From positions 4,779-68,778 of the forward strand of contig DATGEL010000003.1 of assembly GCA_035310145.1 (NCBI GenBank): DNA of 64,000 bases, read 5' to 3'. The stretch's first letter is position 1, and each line of letters begins with the position of its first letter. Source of the stretch: Dehalococcoidia bacterium. Its GTDB lineage: Bacteria > Chloroflexota > Dehalococcoidia > CAUJGQ01. The notes below the pieces were generated by a model that searched no databases, had not been told where the DNA came from, and worked only from the letters and a program-made list of their open reading frames with translations. A program made the position numbers and the translations under genes. This document shows, one piece after another, positions 18,269 through 63,127 of this stretch.

Positions 18269-19081
18269 ATGGCCGAGCAGCACACCAGTGGCAACGGGCA
18301 GCATCGCTACGGCACGGGCCGCGTGCCGCTGCCGCAGACCAGCCACGAAGGCATGGACGAGATCAAGAAGGGCCAGTTCGTCCAGTACGCCTTCTACACG
18401 ATCGATTCCGCCTGGCGGCGGCTTCCGGCCGAAGAGCGGGCGCGGCAGAAGTCCGAGTTTGCCGATACCGTGGCGGCGCACGCGGGCGAGGTGCAGACAC
18501 GGGTCTATAGCCTCGTGGGGCTGCGTCCCGACGCCGACCTGCTGCTCTGGAACGTCGCCGGCACGCTCGATGCCTTCAGCCGGCTCGGCGCGGCGCTGCT
18601 GGGCACCGGCATGGGCGCCTATCTGCGCACGCCGTATGCGTATCTCGCCGTCACCAAGCGATCGATCTACGTCACGCGGCACGCGCACAGCGGCCAGGAC
18701 GGCCAGCGGCTGGAGATGCGGCCCTCCGGCGCAAAATATTTGTTCGTCTATCCCTTCGTGAAGACGCGCGCCTGGTACAAGCTCACCCAGTCGGCGCGGC
18801 AGGGGATGATGGACGAGCACATCACGATCGGCCACAAGTATCCGAGCGTGAAGCTGAACACCACGTACTCGTTTGGCCTCGACGACCAGGAGTTCGTTGT
18901 CGCCTTCGAGACCGACGAGCCGCGCGATTTCGTCGATCTCGTGCAGGAGCTGCGCGAAACCGAGGTCAGCCTCTACACACTGCGCGATACGCCGATCTTC
19001 TCCTGCGTGGCGATGACCCTGCCGGAGGCGCTCGACGCGCTGGATGGCGCCCGCGCGGCCGCGCCGCATCCCGTCGCCTGA
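18269..19081 (+). CDS. Chlorite dismutase family protein (HemQ/ChdC coproheme decarboxylase-like).
   Basis: YAFYTIDSAWRRL...ITIGHKYPSVKLNTTYSFGLDDQEFVVAFETDEPRDFVDLVQELRETE. AGGAG RBS before ATG 18269. Confidence 0.75.
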   Translation: MAEQHTSGNGQHRYGTGRVPLPQTSHEGMDEIKKGQFVQYAFYTIDSAWRRLPAEERARQKSEFADTVAAHAGEVQTRVYSLVGLRPDADLLLWNVAGTLDAFSRLGAALLGTGMGAYLRTPYAYLAVTKRSIYVTRHAHSGQDGQRLEMRPSGAKYLFVYPFVKTRAWYKLTQSARQGMMDEHITIGHKYPSVKLNTTYSFGLDDQEFVVAFETDEPRDFVDLVQELRETEVSLYTLRDTPIFSCVAMTLPEALDALDGARAAAPHPVA

Positions 19082-34441: not shown

Positions 34442-36841
34442 CTAATGCAGCGCTCCACCGGCCGACAGCCGCTCCAGCGTCTCCGACGGAATGCCAAGCA
34501 GCCCGCCGAACACGGCCGCGTTGTCCTCGCCGAGGCGTGGCGCCGGACGGCGCACGGGCAGCGGGTCCGGGCCAAAGCGGTAGGGCGCGCTGTACACAGG
34601 CAGCGTTGCCCAGCCGGGATGCTCGACCGGATGGAAGAAGCGGCGGGCCCGCAGGTGTTCATCTTCGAGGAGATCGCCGGCGTGCTGAGAGCGCATTGCC
34701 GGCACGCCCGCCGCCTGCAGCCGCGCCGCGAGTTCCGCCGCGTCCTGGTCCGCCGTCCATGCTGCGATCCGCAGGTCGATCGCTTCACGGCGGTCCAGTC
34801 TGCCCGCGACGCTGGCGAGCATCGCAGCTTGCGACCACTCCGGCGCGTCCATCTCCTGCGCCAATGCCTGCCACTCTGTGTCGGATGTGACAGCGACGGC
34901 GAGCCAGCGGCCTTCGCGACATGGGAAGACGTTGTGGGGCGCCCAGCGGCGGTCGGCGTTGCCGAGGCGAGGCGGGTCCACGCCGTGTTCCGCCAGCAGA
35001 GCGTATCCCTCGGTCAGCGCGAACAGCAGTCCCTCGGCCTCCGAGAGGTCGATGTGCTGGCCGCGGCCGCTGAGGCCGCGATGGCGCAGCGCCGCCAGCA
35101 CGGCCACGGCGCCGAGCAGGCCGCCGATCGGGTCCGCGTAGGGCAGGCCGAGCGCTTCCGGCGGCCCGGCGGCGTACCCGGTCAACTCGGCCAGGCCGGA
35201 GAAGGCTTCCATCGTGTAGCCGTACGCGACATAATCCCGCTCCGGGCCGGTCTGGCCGAAGCCGGAGAGGCTGATCATGACCAGCTCGGGTCGCAGGGCG
35301 CGTAACGTCTCGTAGCCGAGACCCAGCCGCTCCATCACGCCCGGCGCGTAGTTTTCCACGACGACATCGCTGACGCTCACCAGCTCGCGCGCCAGCGCCA
35401 GTCCCTCGGCGCTGCGCAGGTTGAGCGTGATGCCGGCCTTGCCGCGGTTGAAGGCGGCGAAGCGCAGGCTCTTGTCGGGGTCGATCGGCGCGCCGCGCGG
35501 GAACGGCCCCACGCCGCGAGCAGAGTCGATCCGCTCGCGCGTCTCAATCTTGATCACCTCGGCGCCGAGGTCGGCAAGCTGCAGGGCGCAGTGCGGCCCC
35601 GCCCATGCCCAGGAGAAATCGGCGACGCGAATGCCTGTCAAGGGCGCAGGTTTTAGGGCGTAGGGCGTAGGAGGCGTGCCGGATTCAGCCGAGGCCGCGG
35701 GCTGTGCCTCGCTGTTACCCCTCTCGGCGAGGACTTCGGCCGTGTGCCGGCCGAGGCGCGGCGCCGGCCGTGTCAGCCGCCAGGCCGTCTCGCCGCTTCG
35801 GAAAGGGGCGCCGGGCAGCAGGCGCGAGCCGCCGTCCGGCCAGGGCACGGCGACGAACGCCTGGCGCGCGACAAATTGCGGCTGGCTCTGCGCTTGCGAG
35901 GGGCGGTTGACCGGGGCGAAGGGCAGGCGCAGGCGCTGGCCGGCATGATAGACCTCCTGTTTGGAGTGGCCAGCCGCCCACGCTGCCGCGCGAGCCTCGA
36001 TCTCCTCGCGGCTCGCCAGCCGTGCCCGGCGATCCGGAACCATCACCAGCGCCTCGGCCCCGATCAGCTCGCCCAGCTTCTGCCAATGCTGCTCGGTCAC
36101 GGCCATCAGCCGCGCCAGGCCGTCCGCGGCTGGGGTGAAGCCGGCGAAGACGATTGTCGGCGAGAAGCGATCGCGCACTTTGCCGGTGATCACGACTTCC
36201 GGCAGGCTGGAGTGCAGGATCGAGGCCACGCACTCCTGCGTCGAAACGTCGATCGCGGCGCCGGCCTGCATGGACGGCTCACCTCGCTCGCGGCCGAACA
36301 GCGCCGCGACCAGTGCGACCGCCGCGTGCAGCGCCGCCAGCACTTCGGCCTGGCGCGGAGCGGGACGCAGCGGCGGCTTCGCCGGGTCGTCCACCCAGTC
36401 CGGCACGATCGCGGCCAGCCCGCCGGCGTGGATGCCGATCAGGTCTTCGCCTTTCCACAGCCGCCGCGGCCCGCTTTGGCCGAAGGGCGAAAGCGAGACC
36501 ACGATCAGGCCTGGCCGCAGGCGCTGCAGCCGCTCGACGCCGAACCCGGCTACGTCGAGAAAGCCGGGAGGGTGGTTCTCGATCAGTGCGTCGGCCCCGG
36601 CGATAAGCCGCTCGATCTGTGCGCGGCCCGCCACCGTCGTCGCATCGGCGACCACGCTGCGCTTGTTGAAGTTGAGCGCGGGAAAGAGCGGATCGCCGCG
36701 CAGCCAGTCGCCGGCAGGAGGTTCCAGCTTCACCACGTCGGCGCCGAGGTCTCCGAGCAGCCGGGCGCAGAGCGGCGCGGCGAAGCCTTCGCCCCACTCG
36801 ACGATGCGCAGCTCGCGCAGGGCGCCCTCCGATTCAGGCAT
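34442..36841 (-). CDS. Tandem-fused CoA-transferase family III (CaiB/BaiF) protein, with two complete CoA_transf_3 domains in one 799-aa chain.
   Basis: Domain 1 starts LRIVEWGEGFAAPLCARLLGDLGADVVKLEPP; domain 2 starts LTGIRVADFSWAWAGPHCALQLADLGAEVIKIE. Each is followed by the characteristic GxGxxxE/D core. Confidence 0.75.
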   Translation of the reverse strand: MPESEGALRELRIVEWGEGFAAPLCARLLGDLGADVVKLEPPAGDWLRGDPLFPALNFNKRSVVADATTVAGRAQIERLIAGADALIENHPPGFLDVAGFGVERLQRLRPGLIVVSLSPFGQSGPRRLWKGEDLIGIHAGGLAAIVPDWVDDPAKPPLRPAPRQAEVLAALHAAVALVAALFGRERGEPSMQAGAAIDVSTQECVASILHSSLPEVVITGKVRDRFSPTIVFAGFTPAADGLARLMAVTEQHWQKLGELIGAEALVMVPDRRARLASREEIEARAAAWAAGHSKQEVYHAGQRLRLPFAPVNRPSQAQSQPQFVARQAFVAVPWPDGGSRLLPGAPFRSGETAWRLTRPAPRLGRHTAEVLAERGNSEAQPAASAESGTPPTPYALKPAPLTGIRVADFSWAWAGPHCALQLADLGAEVIKIETRERIDSARGVGPFPRGAPIDPDKSLRFAAFNRGKAGITLNLRSAEGLALARELVSVSDVVVENYAPGVMERLGLGYETLRALRPELVMISLSGFGQTGPERDYVAYGYTMEAFSGLAELTGYAAGPPEALGLPYADPIGGLLGAVAVLAALRHRGLSGRGQHIDLSEAEGLLFALTEGYALLAEHGVDPPRLGNADRRWAPHNVFPCREGRWLAVAVTSDTEWQALAQEMDAPEWSQAAMLASVAGRLDRREAIDLRIAAWTADQDAAELAARLQAAGVPAMRSQHAGDLLEDEHLRARRFFHPVEHPGWATLPVYSAPYRFGPDPLPVRRPAPRLGEDNAAVFGGLLGIPSETLERLSAGGALH

Positions 36842-39344: not shown

Positions 39345-40562
39345 TCAGATCGCGCCTTGCTCGCGCAGCTCCGCGATCTGCCCGGCGCCGAGGCCAAGCA
39401 ATTCGTGCAGCACCTCGTCGGTGTGCTGGCCCAGCAGCGGCGGCGCCGTGCGCGGGCCGACGTGCGAGTCCGAGAGCGCGATCGGTGAGCCGACCATGGG
39501 CAGCTCACCGATCGTGGGGTGCGGCAACAACGTGACCACGCCCAGCGCCTGCACCTGCGGGTCGGCGAAGGCCTGCGCCACGGTGTTGATGGCGCCGGAC
39601 GGCACGCCATGCGCGTTGAGCAACTCCACCCACTCCGCCGCCGTCTTCTGTGCGATGAGCGATTGCACCATCGCGATCAGCGCCTTGCGGTTGGCGACGC
39701 GATCCGCGTTCGTGCGGAAGCGCGGGTCGTCGGGCAGGTCGGGGCGGCCGGCCAGCTCGCAAAAGGTCTTGAACTGGCGCGGGTTGGCGCAGGCCAGGGA
39801 GATCGGCTGGTCGCTGGCGTGGAAGACCTGGTAGGGCACGATGTTGGGGTGGGCGTTGCCGAAGCGGCCGGCGTCCTTGCCGCTGACGAGATAATTTTGA
39901 CCCACGTTCGCCAGCCAGGCCATGGCGGACTGCAGCAAGGAGGCGTCCACGCGCTCGCCCCGGCCCGTCTCTGTGCGGCGGTAAAGCGCGGCCAGGACGC
40001 CGTTCAGCATAAACAGGGCCGCGGTGATGTCCACGATGGCGATACCGACCTTCATCGGCTCGCCCGCCGGCTCGCCGGTGACGCCCATGATGCCCGCCAG
40101 CCCCTGAACGACGAAATCGTAGCCGGCGTACTCGGCGTACGGCCCCGTCGTACCGAAGCCGGTGAGCGAGGCGTGAATCAGGCCGGGGTTCGCTTGCCAG
40201 AGCACATCGTCACCGAGGTCCATGCGCTCCAGGGTGCCGGTCCTGAAGTTCTCGATCAGGATGTCGGACTTGCGCACGAGCTCGAGCGCCAGCTCGCGCG
40301 CGGCCGCGTGCTTGAGATTGAGCGTGATGCTGCGCTTGTTGCGGTTGACCGAGAGGTAGTAGGCGCTTTCACCGCCGGCGAAGGGGGGACCCCAGCCGCG
40401 CGTCTCGTCGCCCTCGCCTGGCTGTTCGACCTTGATTACGTCGGCGCCCATGTCGCCCAGTGTCATCGCGGCGTACGGCCCGGCCAGCACACGCGAGAGA
40501 TCGAGCACGCGTACGCCGGCGAGCGGGCCGGGTCCTTGAGCTTCCCGATTGGCTTCGTTCAT
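39345..40562 (-). CDS. CoA-transferase family III (CaiB/BaiF) protein.
   Basis: VRVLDLSRVLAGPYAAMTLGDMGADVIKVE N-terminus. Confidence 0.8.
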   Translation of the reverse strand: MNEANREAQGPGPLAGVRVLDLSRVLAGPYAAMTLGDMGADVIKVEQPGEGDETRGWGPPFAGGESAYYLSVNRNKRSITLNLKHAAARELALELVRKSDILIENFRTGTLERMDLGDDVLWQANPGLIHASLTGFGTTGPYAEYAGYDFVVQGLAGIMGVTGEPAGEPMKVGIAIVDITAALFMLNGVLAALYRRTETGRGERVDASLLQSAMAWLANVGQNYLVSGKDAGRFGNAHPNIVPYQVFHASDQPISLACANPRQFKTFCELAGRPDLPDDPRFRTNADRVANRKALIAMVQSLIAQKTAAEWVELLNAHGVPSGAINTVAQAFADPQVQALGVVTLLPHPTIGELPMVGSPIALSDSHVGPRTAPPLLGQHTDEVLHELLGLGAGQIAELREQGAI

Positions 40563-47662: not shown

Positions 47663-48208
47663 GTGACAGTTTCGCAGGCCGCCACGCGCCGCCGTGAGCC
47701 CTCGGTCTCCTGGCAGGCGATCCGCTTCGGCATGATTGGGCTCAGCGGCACGGTAATCTCCTTTGTGCTCTTCACCCTGCTCAATCAGCAGCTTGGCTGG
47801 CGTGTGATCGTCGCCAATCCGATCGCCTACGGTGCCGGCATCGTCAACAACTACTTCTGGAACCGCATCTGGAACTACCGGCACGTCGAGCGGCGCAGCG
47901 TGCTGCATCAGGGTGGGCAGTTCGCGCTGATCAGCCTCGGCGCCCTCGTGCTGCACACGGGCATTCTCGGCTTCGCCACCCGCTGGGGCGTAGGCATCAA
48001 GCGAGATTTCTTCGTCTACTGCGCGGTCTACGCCGGCGCCACCGCCGTCTCATATGCGTGGAACTTCACGTTCAATCACCACATTACTTTCCGCGAACGG
48101 GCGCCGAAGACGCTGCAGGCGCTGGCCCACCCGCATGTGCCGCACCCGCATCTGCCGCACCTGCACCCAGAGAAGGAAGGCACGACGCTCGCGGGAGACG
48201 GCGATTAG
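47663..48208 (+). CDS. GtrA-family membrane protein.
   Basis: RFGMIGLSGTVISFVLFTLL...ANPIAYGAGIVNNYFWNRIWNYR. GTG start with a GAGGAG RBS. Confidence 0.7.
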   Translation: MTVSQAATRRREPSVSWQAIRFGMIGLSGTVISFVLFTLLNQQLGWRVIVANPIAYGAGIVNNYFWNRIWNYRHVERRSVLHQGGQFALISLGALVLHTGILGFATRWGVGIKRDFFVYCAVYAGATAVSYAWNFTFNHHITFRERAPKTLQALAHPHVPHPHLPHLHPEKEGTTLAGDGD

Positions 48209-49998
48209 CCCCCAGGTTGCTGACGTGCCCGCCGCGCCCGCTCCGAGCGGCCCTGCAGGCGCGAGGCGGCGCTGTATGAGCGCAGGATCGCGGAACGTTC
48301 CAGCACACCCACGTACTGTTCCCCGTGGCGGCGCACCACCGGCACGATCGGCATGAACGAGGCGGCGCCGGCCAGCGCCAGCGCAACCTCGTGCAACGTT
48401 TCGTCAGGGTCGAGCAGCGGCACGTCGCGCAGCGCCAGGTCACGTACACGGCGGTCCTCGAACTGCGTTTCGCCGGCGGCGTCCGCCCGTTCCAGCGCGG
48501 CCGCCACCTGGTCGAGGCTGAGCACGCCCTCGAAACGCCCGTCGCGATCGACCACCGGAAAAACCGTGCGGCCGCTGGTGCGCGCCTGCGCCATCGCCTG
48601 GCGCAGCGTGCGATCGGGCGCGATCGTCGGCCAGTCGCGGATCAGGACTTCGCGCACGCGGATGCGCGCCAGCGGGCTGAGGCGGATCAGCTCGCGGTCG
48701 ATGCCACGCAGGCGCAGCGGCAAGGTGTAGATCGACTCCGCGTGCAGCCGGCGGGCCAGCATCACACTTGCCGCCACCGCGGCGACGATCTGCGGCAGCA
48801 GGTTGAAATCGCGCGTGAACTCGCAGACCAGCAGCACCGCGGTGAGCGGCGCGTTGACGACGGCCGCCACCACCGTGCCCATGCCGACCAGCGTGTAAGC
48901 CGGCTCCGGGCTGGCGCCGCTCCAGACGCGGCCGACGATCGCGCCGAAGGCGCCGCCCAGCGTCGCGCCGATGAAGAGCGAGGGCGTGAACACGCCGCCC
49001 GTGGCGCCGGATCCCAGCGTGAAGCTGGTGGCCGCCAGCTTGGCAAGCGGCAGGGCAAGCAACAGGCCGGTTTCCAGGTGACCGTTCAGCGCCTGCTCGA
49101 TGCCGGTGTCACCGCTGCCGAGCACGCGCGGCAGAAACAGGCCGATGGCGCCCACCGCGAGCCCGCCGAGCGCCGGACCGAGCCAGAAGGGAATACGCGA
49201 CTGCTCGATGCGGCTGCCCAGCGAATGCACGGCCAGGAAGAGCGCCACGCCCAGCGGGGCCGCAATCAGCCCCAGCAGCAAGTCGAGCGGCACGTCCTGC
49301 CAGGGCGCCGGCGGCAGCGCGGGCGCCGTGATCACGTGCTCGACGCTGAACTGCTGCGCCACGGCAGTAGCGGCCACCGCGGCCAGCGCCAGCAGCGAGA
49401 AACGCCTCGGCTCCAGCTCCTCCAGCAGCACTTCGCTGGCGAAGGCGGCGCCGGTGAGCGGCGCATGGTACATGCCCGCGAGGCCGGCCCCGGCGCCGCA
49501 GGCCAGCAACGTGCGCAGCCGCGGCGCCGGCAGACGCAGGAGCTGGCCGAGCCCGGAGGAGAGCGCCGCGCCGATCTGGATGATCGGCCCCTCCGGCCCG
49601 GCCGAACCGCCGGAGCCGATCGTCACGGTCGAGCCGATCGCCGTGTGCACGCCGGCGATCCAGGGCAGGCGGCTCCCTCTCGTTTCCACGGCCACGATCA
49701 CCTCGGAGACGCCGTGGCCCGCCGGTGCGTGCAGCACGAAGCGCAGATAGAGGCCCACCAGCAGCCCGCCCGCCGCCGGCAGCAGCGCGACCTAGGGCCG
49801 GTCGAGCAGCGTGGCGGCGAGATCTACACCCTTAAACGAGCCGAAGAAGAGCTGGTTGGCGCCGTGCAGCAGCTCGCGGAAGCCGACCGCGACCAGCCCC
49901 ATGCCCGCGCCCGTGGCGACGACGAGCAGCAGAAAGCCGGCCTGCTCAGCCAACCCCGCCGATTCGACGCGCTCGCGCAGCCCCAGCCAGCGGCTCAT
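48205..49998 (-). pseudogene. ClC-family chloride channel/transporter with C-terminal CBS domains, interrupted by an in-frame TAG at 49792..49794.
   Basis: ORFs 49792..50127 and 48205..49758 are in the same frame, separated by a single amber codon (...TLLDRP*VALLPAAGG...). The pore motif GSGGSAGPEGP, GMYHAPLTG and C-terminal CBS pair are intact. Confidence 0.6.
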
Positions 49999-61192: not shown

Positions 61193-62011
61193 TCACCCTG
61201 CGCCCGGACGCAATCCGTACTGAATCAGCCGCGAGTAGGGGCGGAACCCGAGCTGCCAGTAGACGTTGAGTCCCAGCTTCGACGACTGCAGCACGCCGAC
61301 GCGGTAGCCTTCGTCCCGCGCTTCCAGCAACGGCACACGCGTCACGGCCGTGCCGATGCCGCGCCGGCGCGCGGATGGCAAGGTGGCCACGTTATAGATG
61401 CCGGCTACCCCTTCCGCAAGATAGAGCGTCGAGGAGGCAACGGGTTCGCCTCGCCACAGGCCGAGGTAGTGGCGCATGAAGGAGTCCGGCCCAAAGCCCA
61501 AGCAGCGGTAGGCTACACCGATGGCGTCGCGCGCGATCACAGGCATGTCGAAGCCGCGGGCCATCACGTCTAGCCAGACGGCGAAGGCCACGGTGTCGCG
61601 CACGGGCTCGACGTCGACGCCGGCGATCGGGCGTCCGGCCGGGAGCGCGGCCAGCTCGGCCGCCATCCCCGGCTCTCCCAGCCCGCGCCACAGGCCGTGA
61701 TTGCGGAGCTGCTCGCCGAGATCGTCCGGCGCCGAGGAGCTGCCGACGTGCCACGTCATCTCGATCGCCCGCCCGCGAAACGGCGCCAGCAGCTCCTGGA
61801 TGCGAGCAGGCGCCGCCGCGGCAGGCAGACGCGCCCGCATCACGCCATTGAACAGTGCGTAGTCGATGTCGGTGATGAACCAGAGCGCGTCGCCCTCGTC
61901 GTGCGTTTCTCCGCCCATGCCCTCGGCGAGCAGGCCATACTGCGCCGCCTGGTTGGCGTCGATCGCCGCGGCCAGCGCCGTGTCGGAGGTGTCGCGCAGA
62001 ATCGCCGCCAT
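61193..62011 (-). CDS. GNAT-family N-acetyltransferase.
   Basis: Acetyl-CoA motif VATLPSARRRGIGTAVT. Its ATG directly abuts the stop codon of the upstream thioredoxin-fold gene (TAGATG). Confidence 0.75.
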   Translation of the reverse strand: MAAILRDTSDTALAAAIDANQAAQYGLLAEGMGGETHDEGDALWFITDIDYALFNGVMRARLPAAAAPARIQELLAPFRGRAIEMTWHVGSSSAPDDLGEQLRNHGLWRGLGEPGMAAELAALPAGRPIAGVDVEPVRDTVAFAVWLDVMARGFDMPVIARDAIGVAYRCLGFGPDSFMRHYLGLWRGEPVASSTLYLAEGVAGIYNVATLPSARRRGIGTAVTRVPLLEARDEGYRVGVLQSSKLGLNVYWQLGFRPYSRLIQYGLRPGAG

Positions 62012-63127
62012 CTAGCGCGGCATCCCCTCCATCTCGATCTGCGGGTAGTAGCGCCGGTCGCCCAGCGCATCAACCGCGGCCCAGAACGGCGGGCCGCCGG
62101 CGAGGCCAGGCTGCTCCAACGCCCAGGCCTGGCGCTTGTACGACCAGCTTTGCGGCCGCAGGCGCTGCGCTGCGTGGAAGTGCCGCTGCGCGGCCTCGGT
62201 CTGCCCCTGCTCGTGCAGCCAGGTACCCAGGCGGAAGTGCGTTGCCGCCAGCGCTTGCTCCTCGCTGGGACCGGGCAGGCGCCGCCGCGCCTCCGCTGCC
62301 GAGAGCACATGACGGCTCGCGGCGCCCTTCGCCACCCAGTCGCGCAGGGCGTTGAGGTAGACCTCACGCCGCACCCGGTAGTCTTCGATCGCTTCCGGCG
62401 GCATCTGGAAGGTGGTGCGGTCCATAGTGCGGAAGCCGTCGCCCGCGCCGGCGGGCTCGGTGGTGCGCACGATACGGCCCTGCTCGTCGATCCAGACCGC
62501 ACTCGGCACGTTGATCATGTCGTAGAGCCGCGCGACGACGTGATGCTCGTCGATCAGGCAGGGATAGGTCGGCTTCGCCTTCTCGATCCACTCGCGTGCC
62601 GCAGCCGCGCCGCCGGTATCCAGCGCCACCGAGATCGGCAGAAAGCCCTTCTCCCCCAGCTCCGCGTACAGCGCCTGCCAGACCGGCAGGTCCATGCGGC
62701 AGCCTCACCAGCTCGCCCAGGAGACGAGCAGCACCTTCTTGCCGCGGTAGTCGTTGAGCGAATGCATGCGCCCTTCGAGGTCGGGCAGGGTAAAGTCGGG
62801 CGCTTCGAGGCTCCGCAGCGCGTCGCGCCGCGCCGCGCCCGCCTCGCCAAAGGCCCAGGCGTCTGGGGTCGTCTCATGCAGCTCCGGTTGGCCCAGCAAC
62901 CGCGCCAGCGCCGCCAGGTTGAACTGCCGGCCGCCGTCACGCGTAAACTCGGTCTGGCGCCCCGCCGGCAAGGGCACACAGACATCGCCGCGGCAGGCGC
63001 CTTGGGGCTTCAGCTCCCAGCCACTCACGGCCGGCAACGCGGCGACGGGCAGCCAGAGGGCATCGCCCTCGGCTCGCGCTTCCGCGCAGGTTGCTTCGCG
63101 ATCTTCCCACAGTACCGTGACGGTCAT
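62012..63127 (-). CDS. Putative selenoprotein: a TlpA/ResA-like thiol-disulfide oxidoreductase (thioredoxin fold) with an in-frame TGA (62705..62707) at the catalytic Cys position.
   Basis: APDFTLPDLEGRMHSLNDYRGKKVLLVSWASW-[TGA]-GCRMDLPVWQALYAELGEKGFLPISVALD...VWIDEQGRIVRT, to be compared with canonical TlpA ...VLVNFWASWCGPCR.... The two ORF-track ORFs (62705..63316 and 62012..62695) are in the same frame. GGAGGGGAAG RBS before ATG 63127. Confidence 0.55.
62674..62690 (-). other. SECIS-like hairpin, 15 nt downstream of the in-frame UGA.
   Basis: mRNA 5'-CCUGCC GGUCU GGCAGG-3': a 6-bp stem with an apical loop containing GGUC. Spacing and loop resemble the E. coli fdhF SECIS (loop GGUC about 19 nt after the UGA). 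Confidence 0.45.

Follow-up and report, generated by a model that had tools for sequence, protein, structure and literature searches.

On the minus strand of the 64,000-nt stretch of Dehalococcoidia DNA analysed here (contig DATGEL010000003.1; the whole stretch is called the window below), two adjacent open reading frames (ORFs) lie in the same frame and are parted by a single TGA, and the question raised by this locus is whether that codon ends one protein or is translated as selenocysteine (Sec) within a longer one. A previous sequence-only reading of the window had favoured the second possibility and proposed a Sec-containing oxidoreductase of TlpA/ResA type, followed in the mRNA by a hairpin similar to a selenocysteine insertion sequence (SECIS). 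The proposal of such an oxidoreductase is borne out by the match of the read-through product to the NCBIfam family NF041054, by the conservation of the TGA in relatives and by Cys-containing homologs that align at this very codon. We conclude that the region 62012..63127 on the minus strand, to which all gene coordinates given here refer, represents one gene, whose in-frame TGA almost certainly encodes Sec in a thioredoxin-fold redox protein. The explanation that accounts best for the whole set of observations, and which we consider highly probable, is a 371-residue three-domain selenoprotein of the NF041054 family, probably cytoplasmic, with the hairpin serving as its SECIS and with the activity of a thiol/selenol oxidoreductase.

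The frame across the UGA

The single gene comprises 371 codons and a TAG stop (62012..63127) and is delineated by the NF041054 match and by a frame that is uninterrupted except for the TGA. Its start codon ATG (63127..63125) agrees with the N-termini of homologs (MTVTVL...), while the stop codon TAG (62014..62012) is read directly. The ORF upstream of the TGA ends with ...GKKVLLVSWASW, its terminal residues being KKVLLVSWASW, and behind the TGA (62705..62707) the same frame continues as GGC TGC CGC ATG GAC CTG CCG GTC TGG CAG, or G-C-R-M-D-L-P-V-W-Q, so that the two ORFs described earlier are indeed one frame that can be read through directly from the ATG at 63127 to the TAG with a product of 371 residues. 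Public gene callers produced ORFs of 140 aa and 227 aa instead in all three assemblies that contain the locus (JGI, ENA and Logan). Based on the conserved TGA and on the Cys found at this place in full-length homologs, the UGA is predicted to specify Sec141 in the motif W137-A-S-W-U-G-C143, with Cys143 (TGC, 62699..62701), which is conserved at the +2 position and corresponds to the second Cys of a CxxC site, as its predicted resolving partner.

For profile searches the fused protein was supplied with Cys in place of Sec. It scored 344.2 bits against NF041054 (equivalog cutoff 300, E = 9.5e-103), with residues 27-365 covering profile positions 9-353 of 354, and was matched by Pfam AhpC-TSA from residue 108 onwards (7.8e-20) and by Redoxin as well. 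The W-A-x-x-U-G-C motif of NF041054 is present, its U being encoded by the in-frame TGA. The protein is therefore a member of the family named "ResA-like WAxxUGC motif-containing protein" (WAxxUGC_long) and differs from it in nothing of substance. Since this UGC-containing family of TlpA/ResA-like selenoproteins is already catalogued and curated, the gene is not new, and the W-U-G-C spacing, previously regarded as an oddity, turns out to be the name-giving motif of a curated family. No paper was found in the literature with the term "WAxxUGC"; judging from the common motif and fold, the UGC family described in the literature (representative MDE0950781.1) is presumably the same as the "long" NCBIfam family. 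A paper of 2008 reported a higher abundance of the UGC family in non-marine samples, in keeping with the derivation of the present sequence from soil metagenomes. The occurrence of such a protein in a GC-rich genome, also singled out before as notable, loses its exceptional character, as the family is common in GC-rich metagenome-assembled genomes (MAGs) from soil, and the Dehalococcoidia are rich in selenoproteins: their MAGs are listed in BSepDB among the bacteria with most selenoprotein genes (49 and 46) (PMC13326102), so that the use of Sec in the present lineage would be unsurprising. What is added here to the catalogued family is RNA-level evidence for the SECIS, the domain architecture including an N-terminal domain with a Cys pair, and the systematic splitting of the gene in public assemblies.

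Conservation of the codon was followed in two scans, one over genomes (one genome per species, 527 relatives) and the other over metagenomes, seeded with Cys-form proteins, and in each of them the best 80 loci were examined. Among the best 80 of the 527 genome relatives, TGA occupied the Sec codon in 79 of the 79 loci with available upstream sequence, and the N-terminal and C-terminal parts were each present in 79-80 of the 80 loci; all carriers in this set are MAGs, assigned to Chloroflexota/Dehalococcoidia/Tepidiformaceae, Binatia, Rokubacteria, Methylomirabilia, Myxococcales and Acidiferrales. The best 80 metagenome loci contained 79 TGA and one TGC codon despite the Cys-form query. All 162 related Sec-type loci, which come from at least 6 phyla, have TGA at this codon, and the exact sequence of the window, with its TGA, recurs in three independent assemblies (JGI 3300027857, ENA ERZ27279678 and Logan SRR5579859). 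One contig titled "MAG: Klebsiella pneumoniae" (CAMBFS010000011.1) bears a gene copy near-identical to those of two MAGs of Deltaproteobacteria/Binatia type (L058 and L063) and is probably mis-binned or mislabelled.

At the protein level, homologs fall into two populations, namely full-length proteins of 360-410 aa and many fragments of 219-227 aa starting from MDLPVWQ or VWQ; these fragments derive from split Sec genes, of which they form the C-terminal half. The check for Cys orthologs aligned at the TGA gave a positive answer: C-x-C is present at the active site in 68 of 68 full-length homologs, reading WASWCGCR in 41 of them, and for the Cys forms with verified DNA (n=7) the codon is TGC or TGT. 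The Cys at +2, corresponding to Cys143, is retained in 156 of 156 distinct Sec genes and in all Cys forms. The C-terminal part shows a mean column identity of 76%, and both halves of the gene are under purifying selection. Protein databases hold at least 42 N-terminal halves ending exactly with W-A-S-W and dozens of C-terminal halves (MDLPVWQ/VWQ), labelled as separate "hypothetical" or "AhpC/TSA" proteins.

The hairpin behind the UGA

The predicted bacterial SECIS hairpin, CCUGCC-GGUCU-GGCAGG, occupies positions 62674..62690 within the codons for D-L-P-V-W-Q-A and consists of the 5′ arm CCUGCC (62690..62685), the apical loop GGUCU (62684..62680) and the 3′ arm GGCAGG (62679..62674). Its first paired base is the 15th nucleotide after the UGA, which places the loop at a distance of 20 nt. 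The published model of bacterial SECIS elements postulates a loop of 3-9 nt on a stem of 4-16 bp, at least one G among the first two loop nucleotides, a spacing of 16-37 nt and a minimum free energy (MFE) of -7.5 kcal/mol or lower, the loop following the pattern N1-G-(G or U)-N-N2 with N1 and N2 able to pair (PMC13188914). The hairpin of the window agrees with this model in all four respects, which substantiates its earlier description as SECIS-like: a 5-nt loop (GGUCU) is closed by a 6-bp stem, the loop reads G-G-U-C-U with N1 = G and N2 = U capable of forming a G.U pair, the spacing is 20 nt, as in every aligned ortholog, the alignment being free of indels, and the 17-mer folds with an MFE of -10.0 kcal/mol (z = -3.27). 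G lies within the first two loop positions in 156 of 156 distinct genes, 127 of which agree with the model on all four counts, while the remaining 29 depart from it in the energy of the 17-mer alone. Placed in a 76-nt context, the sequence folds no better than shuffled ones (z = +0.89), and since the genuine SECIS of E. coli fdhF, found with 100% identity in the annotated fdhF genes of over 5,400 E. coli genomes, proved likewise unremarkable against shuffled sequences (z = -1.33), the significance of folding in context was dropped as a criterion. The MFE fold of a 46-nt context (62668..62709) adds a lower stem (-18 kcal/mol, z = +0.16); a lower stem around the hairpin was not recovered in the consensus of 80 sequences.

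In the ungapped 72-column alignment of 80 Sec genes the 6-bp hairpin was the sole consensus structure found by RNAalifold, with 98.7% of cells paired as compared to 25-60% when the partners were slid by 1-3 columns, and double (compensatory) changes were observed in two of the six stem pairs. Constraint at synonymous sites was assessed by comparing the stem codons with other codons of the same 156 distinct Sec genes. Leu+6 is CUG (142) or UUG (14) in all 156 genes, although these two codons account for only 47.4% of other Leu codons; Gln+10 is CAG in 153 of 155 genes against a background of 75.8%, and Asp+5 is GAC in 144 of 154 against 65%, while the wobble positions of Pro+7 and Val+8, belonging to the loop, vary. 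No such constraint was detected for the codon of Cys+2, which is TGC in 79 of 80 genes of the first set but in 85% of the 156 genes versus 82% in the background. Some deviations from the prevailing stem are compensated: UUG is accompanied by CAA (L014), GAU by a following A (L007 and L045), and a replacement of Pro by Ser (CCC to UCC) retains a G.U pair. Two genes are the sole clear exceptions among the 156, one (L106:2373) having W-Y instead of W-Q (GGUAC) and thereby a broken hairpin, the other (L092:972) combining CUG with CAA in a C-A mismatch; they may be decaying copies or sequencing errors.

A further signature concerns loop positions 1 and 4 (within 62680..62684), which are the wobble bases of the Pro and Val codons. 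Their combinations in the 156 Sec genes are C/G in 97, G/C in 15, A/C in 33, A/U in 8 and A/G in 3 cases, that is, C at position 1 never occurs with non-G and G never with non-C at position 4, which is free if position 1 is A, a base able to pair with the last U of the loop; both loop classes are found within the same protein clusters of 70-80% identity. The two coupled positions belong to separate codons and are synonymous in both, so the RNA itself must be the object of selection. This pattern suggests that the loop is closed either by N1:N4, with G-U extruded, or by N1:U5.

Competing explanations

Several alternatives had to be considered with respect to both the codon and the hairpin. The locus might contain two separate genes, of 140 aa and 227 aa, or one gene truncated at residue 140, as is implied by the two ORFs called in all three public assemblies and by the ATG located four codons past the TGA of the window. 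Relatives do not follow this arrangement, although their ending at the TGA as two genes had been named in the sequence-only reading as the outcome to be feared: an ATG at +4 is present in only 31 of the 156 distinct Sec genes, while elsewhere the first in-frame start codon (ATG, GTG or TTG) comes 6 to 63 codons past the TGA, so that the two-gene model would leave untranslated the segment G-C-R-x-D-L-P, which is nonetheless conserved. It would also distribute one thioredoxin fold over two chains, whereas the Cys-form homologs are single proteins of 360-410 aa and the fused protein fits the full-length NF041054 model. We therefore consider two genes or a truncated one exceedingly unlikely. An error of sequencing or assembly (TGC/TGG miscall or indel), or the mark of a pseudogene, was an a priori possibility raised in the same earlier reading, and its probability is practically negligible given the identical TGA in the JGI, ENA and Logan assemblies, obtained from different data, and in the 162 related loci, as well as the purifying selection on both halves. 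A 3-nt indel that would have converted a canonical CxxC into the present spacing is ruled out, because C-x-C is common to every full-length homolog and no indel is needed to explain it.

Decoding of UGA141 without selenium, by near-cognate read-through with Trp or Cys or by local reassignment of UGA, deserves attention since the Sec machinery is not demonstrated for the present genome and two JGI gene calls contain Trp at this codon. These proteins (P0004 and P0008) read W-A-S-W-W-G-C-R, and the locus of the first (L173:2-1189) does not translate to it under table 11, which indicates that the gene caller had applied a different genetic code and rendered the TGA as Trp. Within the window TGA is the commonest ordinary stop codon (TGA 26, TAG 15 and TAA 8 in 49 genes), which means that UGA is not globally reassigned; the position corresponds to the catalytic Cys in every homolog, Trp at this place would be inactive, and a hairpin of SECIS type is conserved at the correct distance. 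Decoding of this kind thus appears very unlikely. It is also conceivable that the protein does contain Sec while the hairpin is not a functional SECIS and merely follows from GC-rich coding of L-P-V-W-Q, the target of SelB being located elsewhere or being atypical; a subset of bacterial selenoprotein genes indeed has SECIS elements outside the consensus model (PMC13188914). A stem of CUGCC/GGCAG type is kept in four of the seven Cys-form genes, while in the other three (CUA...CAA, CAU; loops CCUAU and CAUAU) stem pairs or the loop GU are lost. Part of the hairpin thus follows from coding this peptide in GC-rich genomes, or else is a relic in recent Sec-to-Cys converts, which the hairpin-bearing Cys forms could be. 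Only two of the six stem pairs show any variation, making classical covariation support thin, and none of the statistics given here is corrected for phylogeny, including the comparison of 149 intact hairpins in 156 Sec genes with four in seven Cys forms (Fisher p = 0.005). Together with this, several other observations weigh against our interpretation of the locus. Rfam gave no match in the window at gathering thresholds and nothing relevant in a permissive search of 62600..62760. No domains of AIRS (SelD), SelA or SelB were found among the genes of the window and no tRNA-Sec in the flanks of 83 loci; the window and the 1.69 Mb of DNA flanking related loci likewise gave no selA, selB, selD or tRNA-Sec, and the searched literature yielded no experimentally characterised member of the family. 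In addition, the 64-kb window contains no tRNA of any kind, and tblastn with an unverified E. coli SelD query returned nothing in the 1.69 Mb. The Sec machinery is thus not linked to the selenoprotein gene. As to the hairpin, its stem codons are frozen while other Leu, Gln and Asp codons of the same Sec genes vary freely, the UUG/CAA and GAU/A pairs and the Pro-to-Ser variant preserve pairing, the coupling within the loop joins synonymous sites of different codons, and the 72-nt alignment contains no other conserved structure. The Sec forms accordingly bear a constraint on the hairpin beyond the peptide effect, and its origin as a mere by-product is improbable. We thus retain the reading of the locus as one selenoprotein gene with the hairpin as its SECIS.

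Architecture, genomic setting and known relatives

Among full-length Cys homologs, the nearest (P0002, 57% identity) was modelled by AlphaFold2 as a compact structure (pLDDT 92.7, pTM 0.90) composed of an N-terminal alpha/beta domain (~10-100), a thioredoxin fold (~115-230) and a helical C-terminal domain (248-357). In the protein of the window the N-terminal domain (62813..63127) contains about 105 aa, not the roughly 170 aa assumed before, the AhpC-TSA match starting already at residue 108; modelled from the window's own sequence it reached pLDDT 90. It bears a C-x4-C pair formed by Cys45 (62995..62993) and Cys50 (62980..62978), a pair found in 146 of 153 Sec genes. For the domain itself the PDB offers no meaningful relative, and it hardly occurs outside the NF041054-type family. 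A seemingly secreted protein of 1881 aa (P0234), with about ten Ig-like repeats each containing P-(D/N)-G-(S/T)-C-x4-C-T-A, matches the core of this domain (query residues 22-76) ten times; it was rejected as a relative, because the likeness probably concerns only a short G-x-C-x4-C disulfide-stapled beta-hairpin motif in Ig-like repeats. The thioredoxin-fold (redoxin) domain spans residues 108-220 (62468..62806), and the all-helical C-terminal domain, with approximate bounds derived from the model of P0002, extends over 62015..62425. The TPR-like tail proposed for it survives as a single repeat (residues 294-326, 62150..62248), seen as one TPR-like stretch in a PDB profile search and as a TPR_2 hit below Pfam's cutoff (E = 0.0017).

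Aligned to 3kcm, 4nmu (ResA) and 2yp6, Sec141 falls on the first Cys of CxxC, and in each case a one-residue deletion is required before the second Cys. The thioredoxin fold is recognised as that of the TlpA/ResA subtype (cd02966 type), while the C-x-x-C active site is replaced by U-G-C here and by C-G-C in the Cys forms. The peroxiredoxin signature P-x-x-x-T/S-x-x-C (AhpC/TSA, BCP type) is absent from the sequence, which reads directly ...KKVLLVSWASW-U. Neither a signal peptide nor a transmembrane segment was found (maximum Kyte-Doolittle(19) value 0.97; the N-terminus reads MTVTVLWEDREATCAEAR), and since both are lacking, the protein is, judging from its sequence, probably cytoplasmic, unlike ResA and TlpA.

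Given this arrangement, the hairpin located 20 nt downstream of UGA141 would act as a bacterial SECIS and recruit SelB-GTP-Sec-tRNA(Sec), whereupon UGA141 would be read as Sec and translation would continue. In the folded protein Sec141, expected to occupy the position of the nucleophilic Cys of CxxC, might attack a disulfide, sulfenate or peroxide of the substrate, and Cys143, being one residue closer than usual, could resolve the adduct into a strained selenenylsulfide, to be recycled by an external reductant or by the N-terminal Cys pair. Sec141 and Cys143 would thus cycle between the selenol/thiol state and the strained selenenylsulfide, the resulting activity being that of a thiol/selenol oxidoreductase of reductase/isomerase or peroxidase type, with the C-x4-C pair and the helical C-terminal domain as candidates for relaying electrons or binding the substrate. 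A CxC disulfide has a lower stability than its CxxC counterpart, and peptides with CxC act as mimics of protein disulfide isomerase; such properties would speak for an oxidant-like or isomerase-like character or for fast turnover. As a more far-reaching and rather doubtful supposition, the "long" UGC family may constitute a distinct three-domain cytoplasmic selenoenzyme, in which the U-G-C centre is combined with the N-terminal C-x4-C domain and a TPR-like domain into a system of redox relay or substrate capture having no characterised counterpart, and the SECIS loop, with positions 1 and 4 covarying around an exposed G-U, may be a specific variant for recognition by SelB.

Immediately downstream, the ATG (62011) of a 272-aa gene (61193..62011) abuts the stop codon of the selenoprotein gene (TAGATG). 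This junction, pointed out in the sequence-only reading, is real, while the attribution of the gene to the GNAT family is weak and borderline (Acetyltransf_1, 21.8 bits versus a cutoff of 20.7). Only in the closest relative (89% identical) do the two genes likewise lie side by side, and the neighbourhood of the gene, inspected as a clue to function, showed only within-clade synteny with no partner conserved beyond close relatives. The window as a whole has a GC content of 69.8%, its nearest relatives are soil MAGs of Chloroflexota (Dehalococcoidia/Tepidiformaceae-like), and its gene content reflects ordinary metabolism, including a gene of the chlorite-dismutase family (18269..19081), family III CoA-transferases (34442..36841 and 39345..40562) and a CLC channel (48205..49758).

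For the knowledge of selenoproteins as such these findings change nothing: a catalogued family is confirmed in one more uncultured GC-rich Chloroflexota genome. Their practical value is in annotation, as the gene is split into "hypothetical" and "AhpC/TSA" ORFs in every public assembly examined, which is corrected by the family model, and recognition of the family flags the organism as a user of Sec. The family occurs widely among soil Chloroflexota, Binatota, Rokubacteria and Myxococcota, the Sec form being dominant among the closest environmental relatives, and its U-x-C spacing combined with a family-specific N-terminal Cys pair makes a reasonable target for enzymology.

Among known systems, the SECIS of E. 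coli fdhF resembles the present hairpin in being a stem-loop that closely follows the UGA within the coding region and in exposing G-U within a GGUC apical loop, which starts 18 nt after the UGA in fdhF and 20 nt here, so that the likeness drawn in the earlier reading was a fair one; the hairpin of the window differs in its perfect GC-rich upper stem of 6 bp without a bulged U, in its 5-nt loop (N-G-U-N-U) with coupled positions 1 and 4, and in having no conserved lower stem that could be found. On the protein side, ResA, TlpA and CcmG (DsbE) have the motif C-x-x-C, whereas U-x-C here is shorter by one residue. They are secreted or anchored in the membrane, while the present protein is devoid of a signal peptide and transmembrane segment, and they have neither its N-terminal domain with C-x4-C nor its helical domain at the C-terminus. 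With Sec-containing Prx-like thiol:disulfide oxidoreductases and thioredoxins (UxxC) it shares the thioredoxin fold, the Sec at the N-terminal redox position and the abundance of Cys homologs, but differs from them by UxC in place of UxxC and by the lack of the peroxiredoxin signature PxxxT/SxxC.

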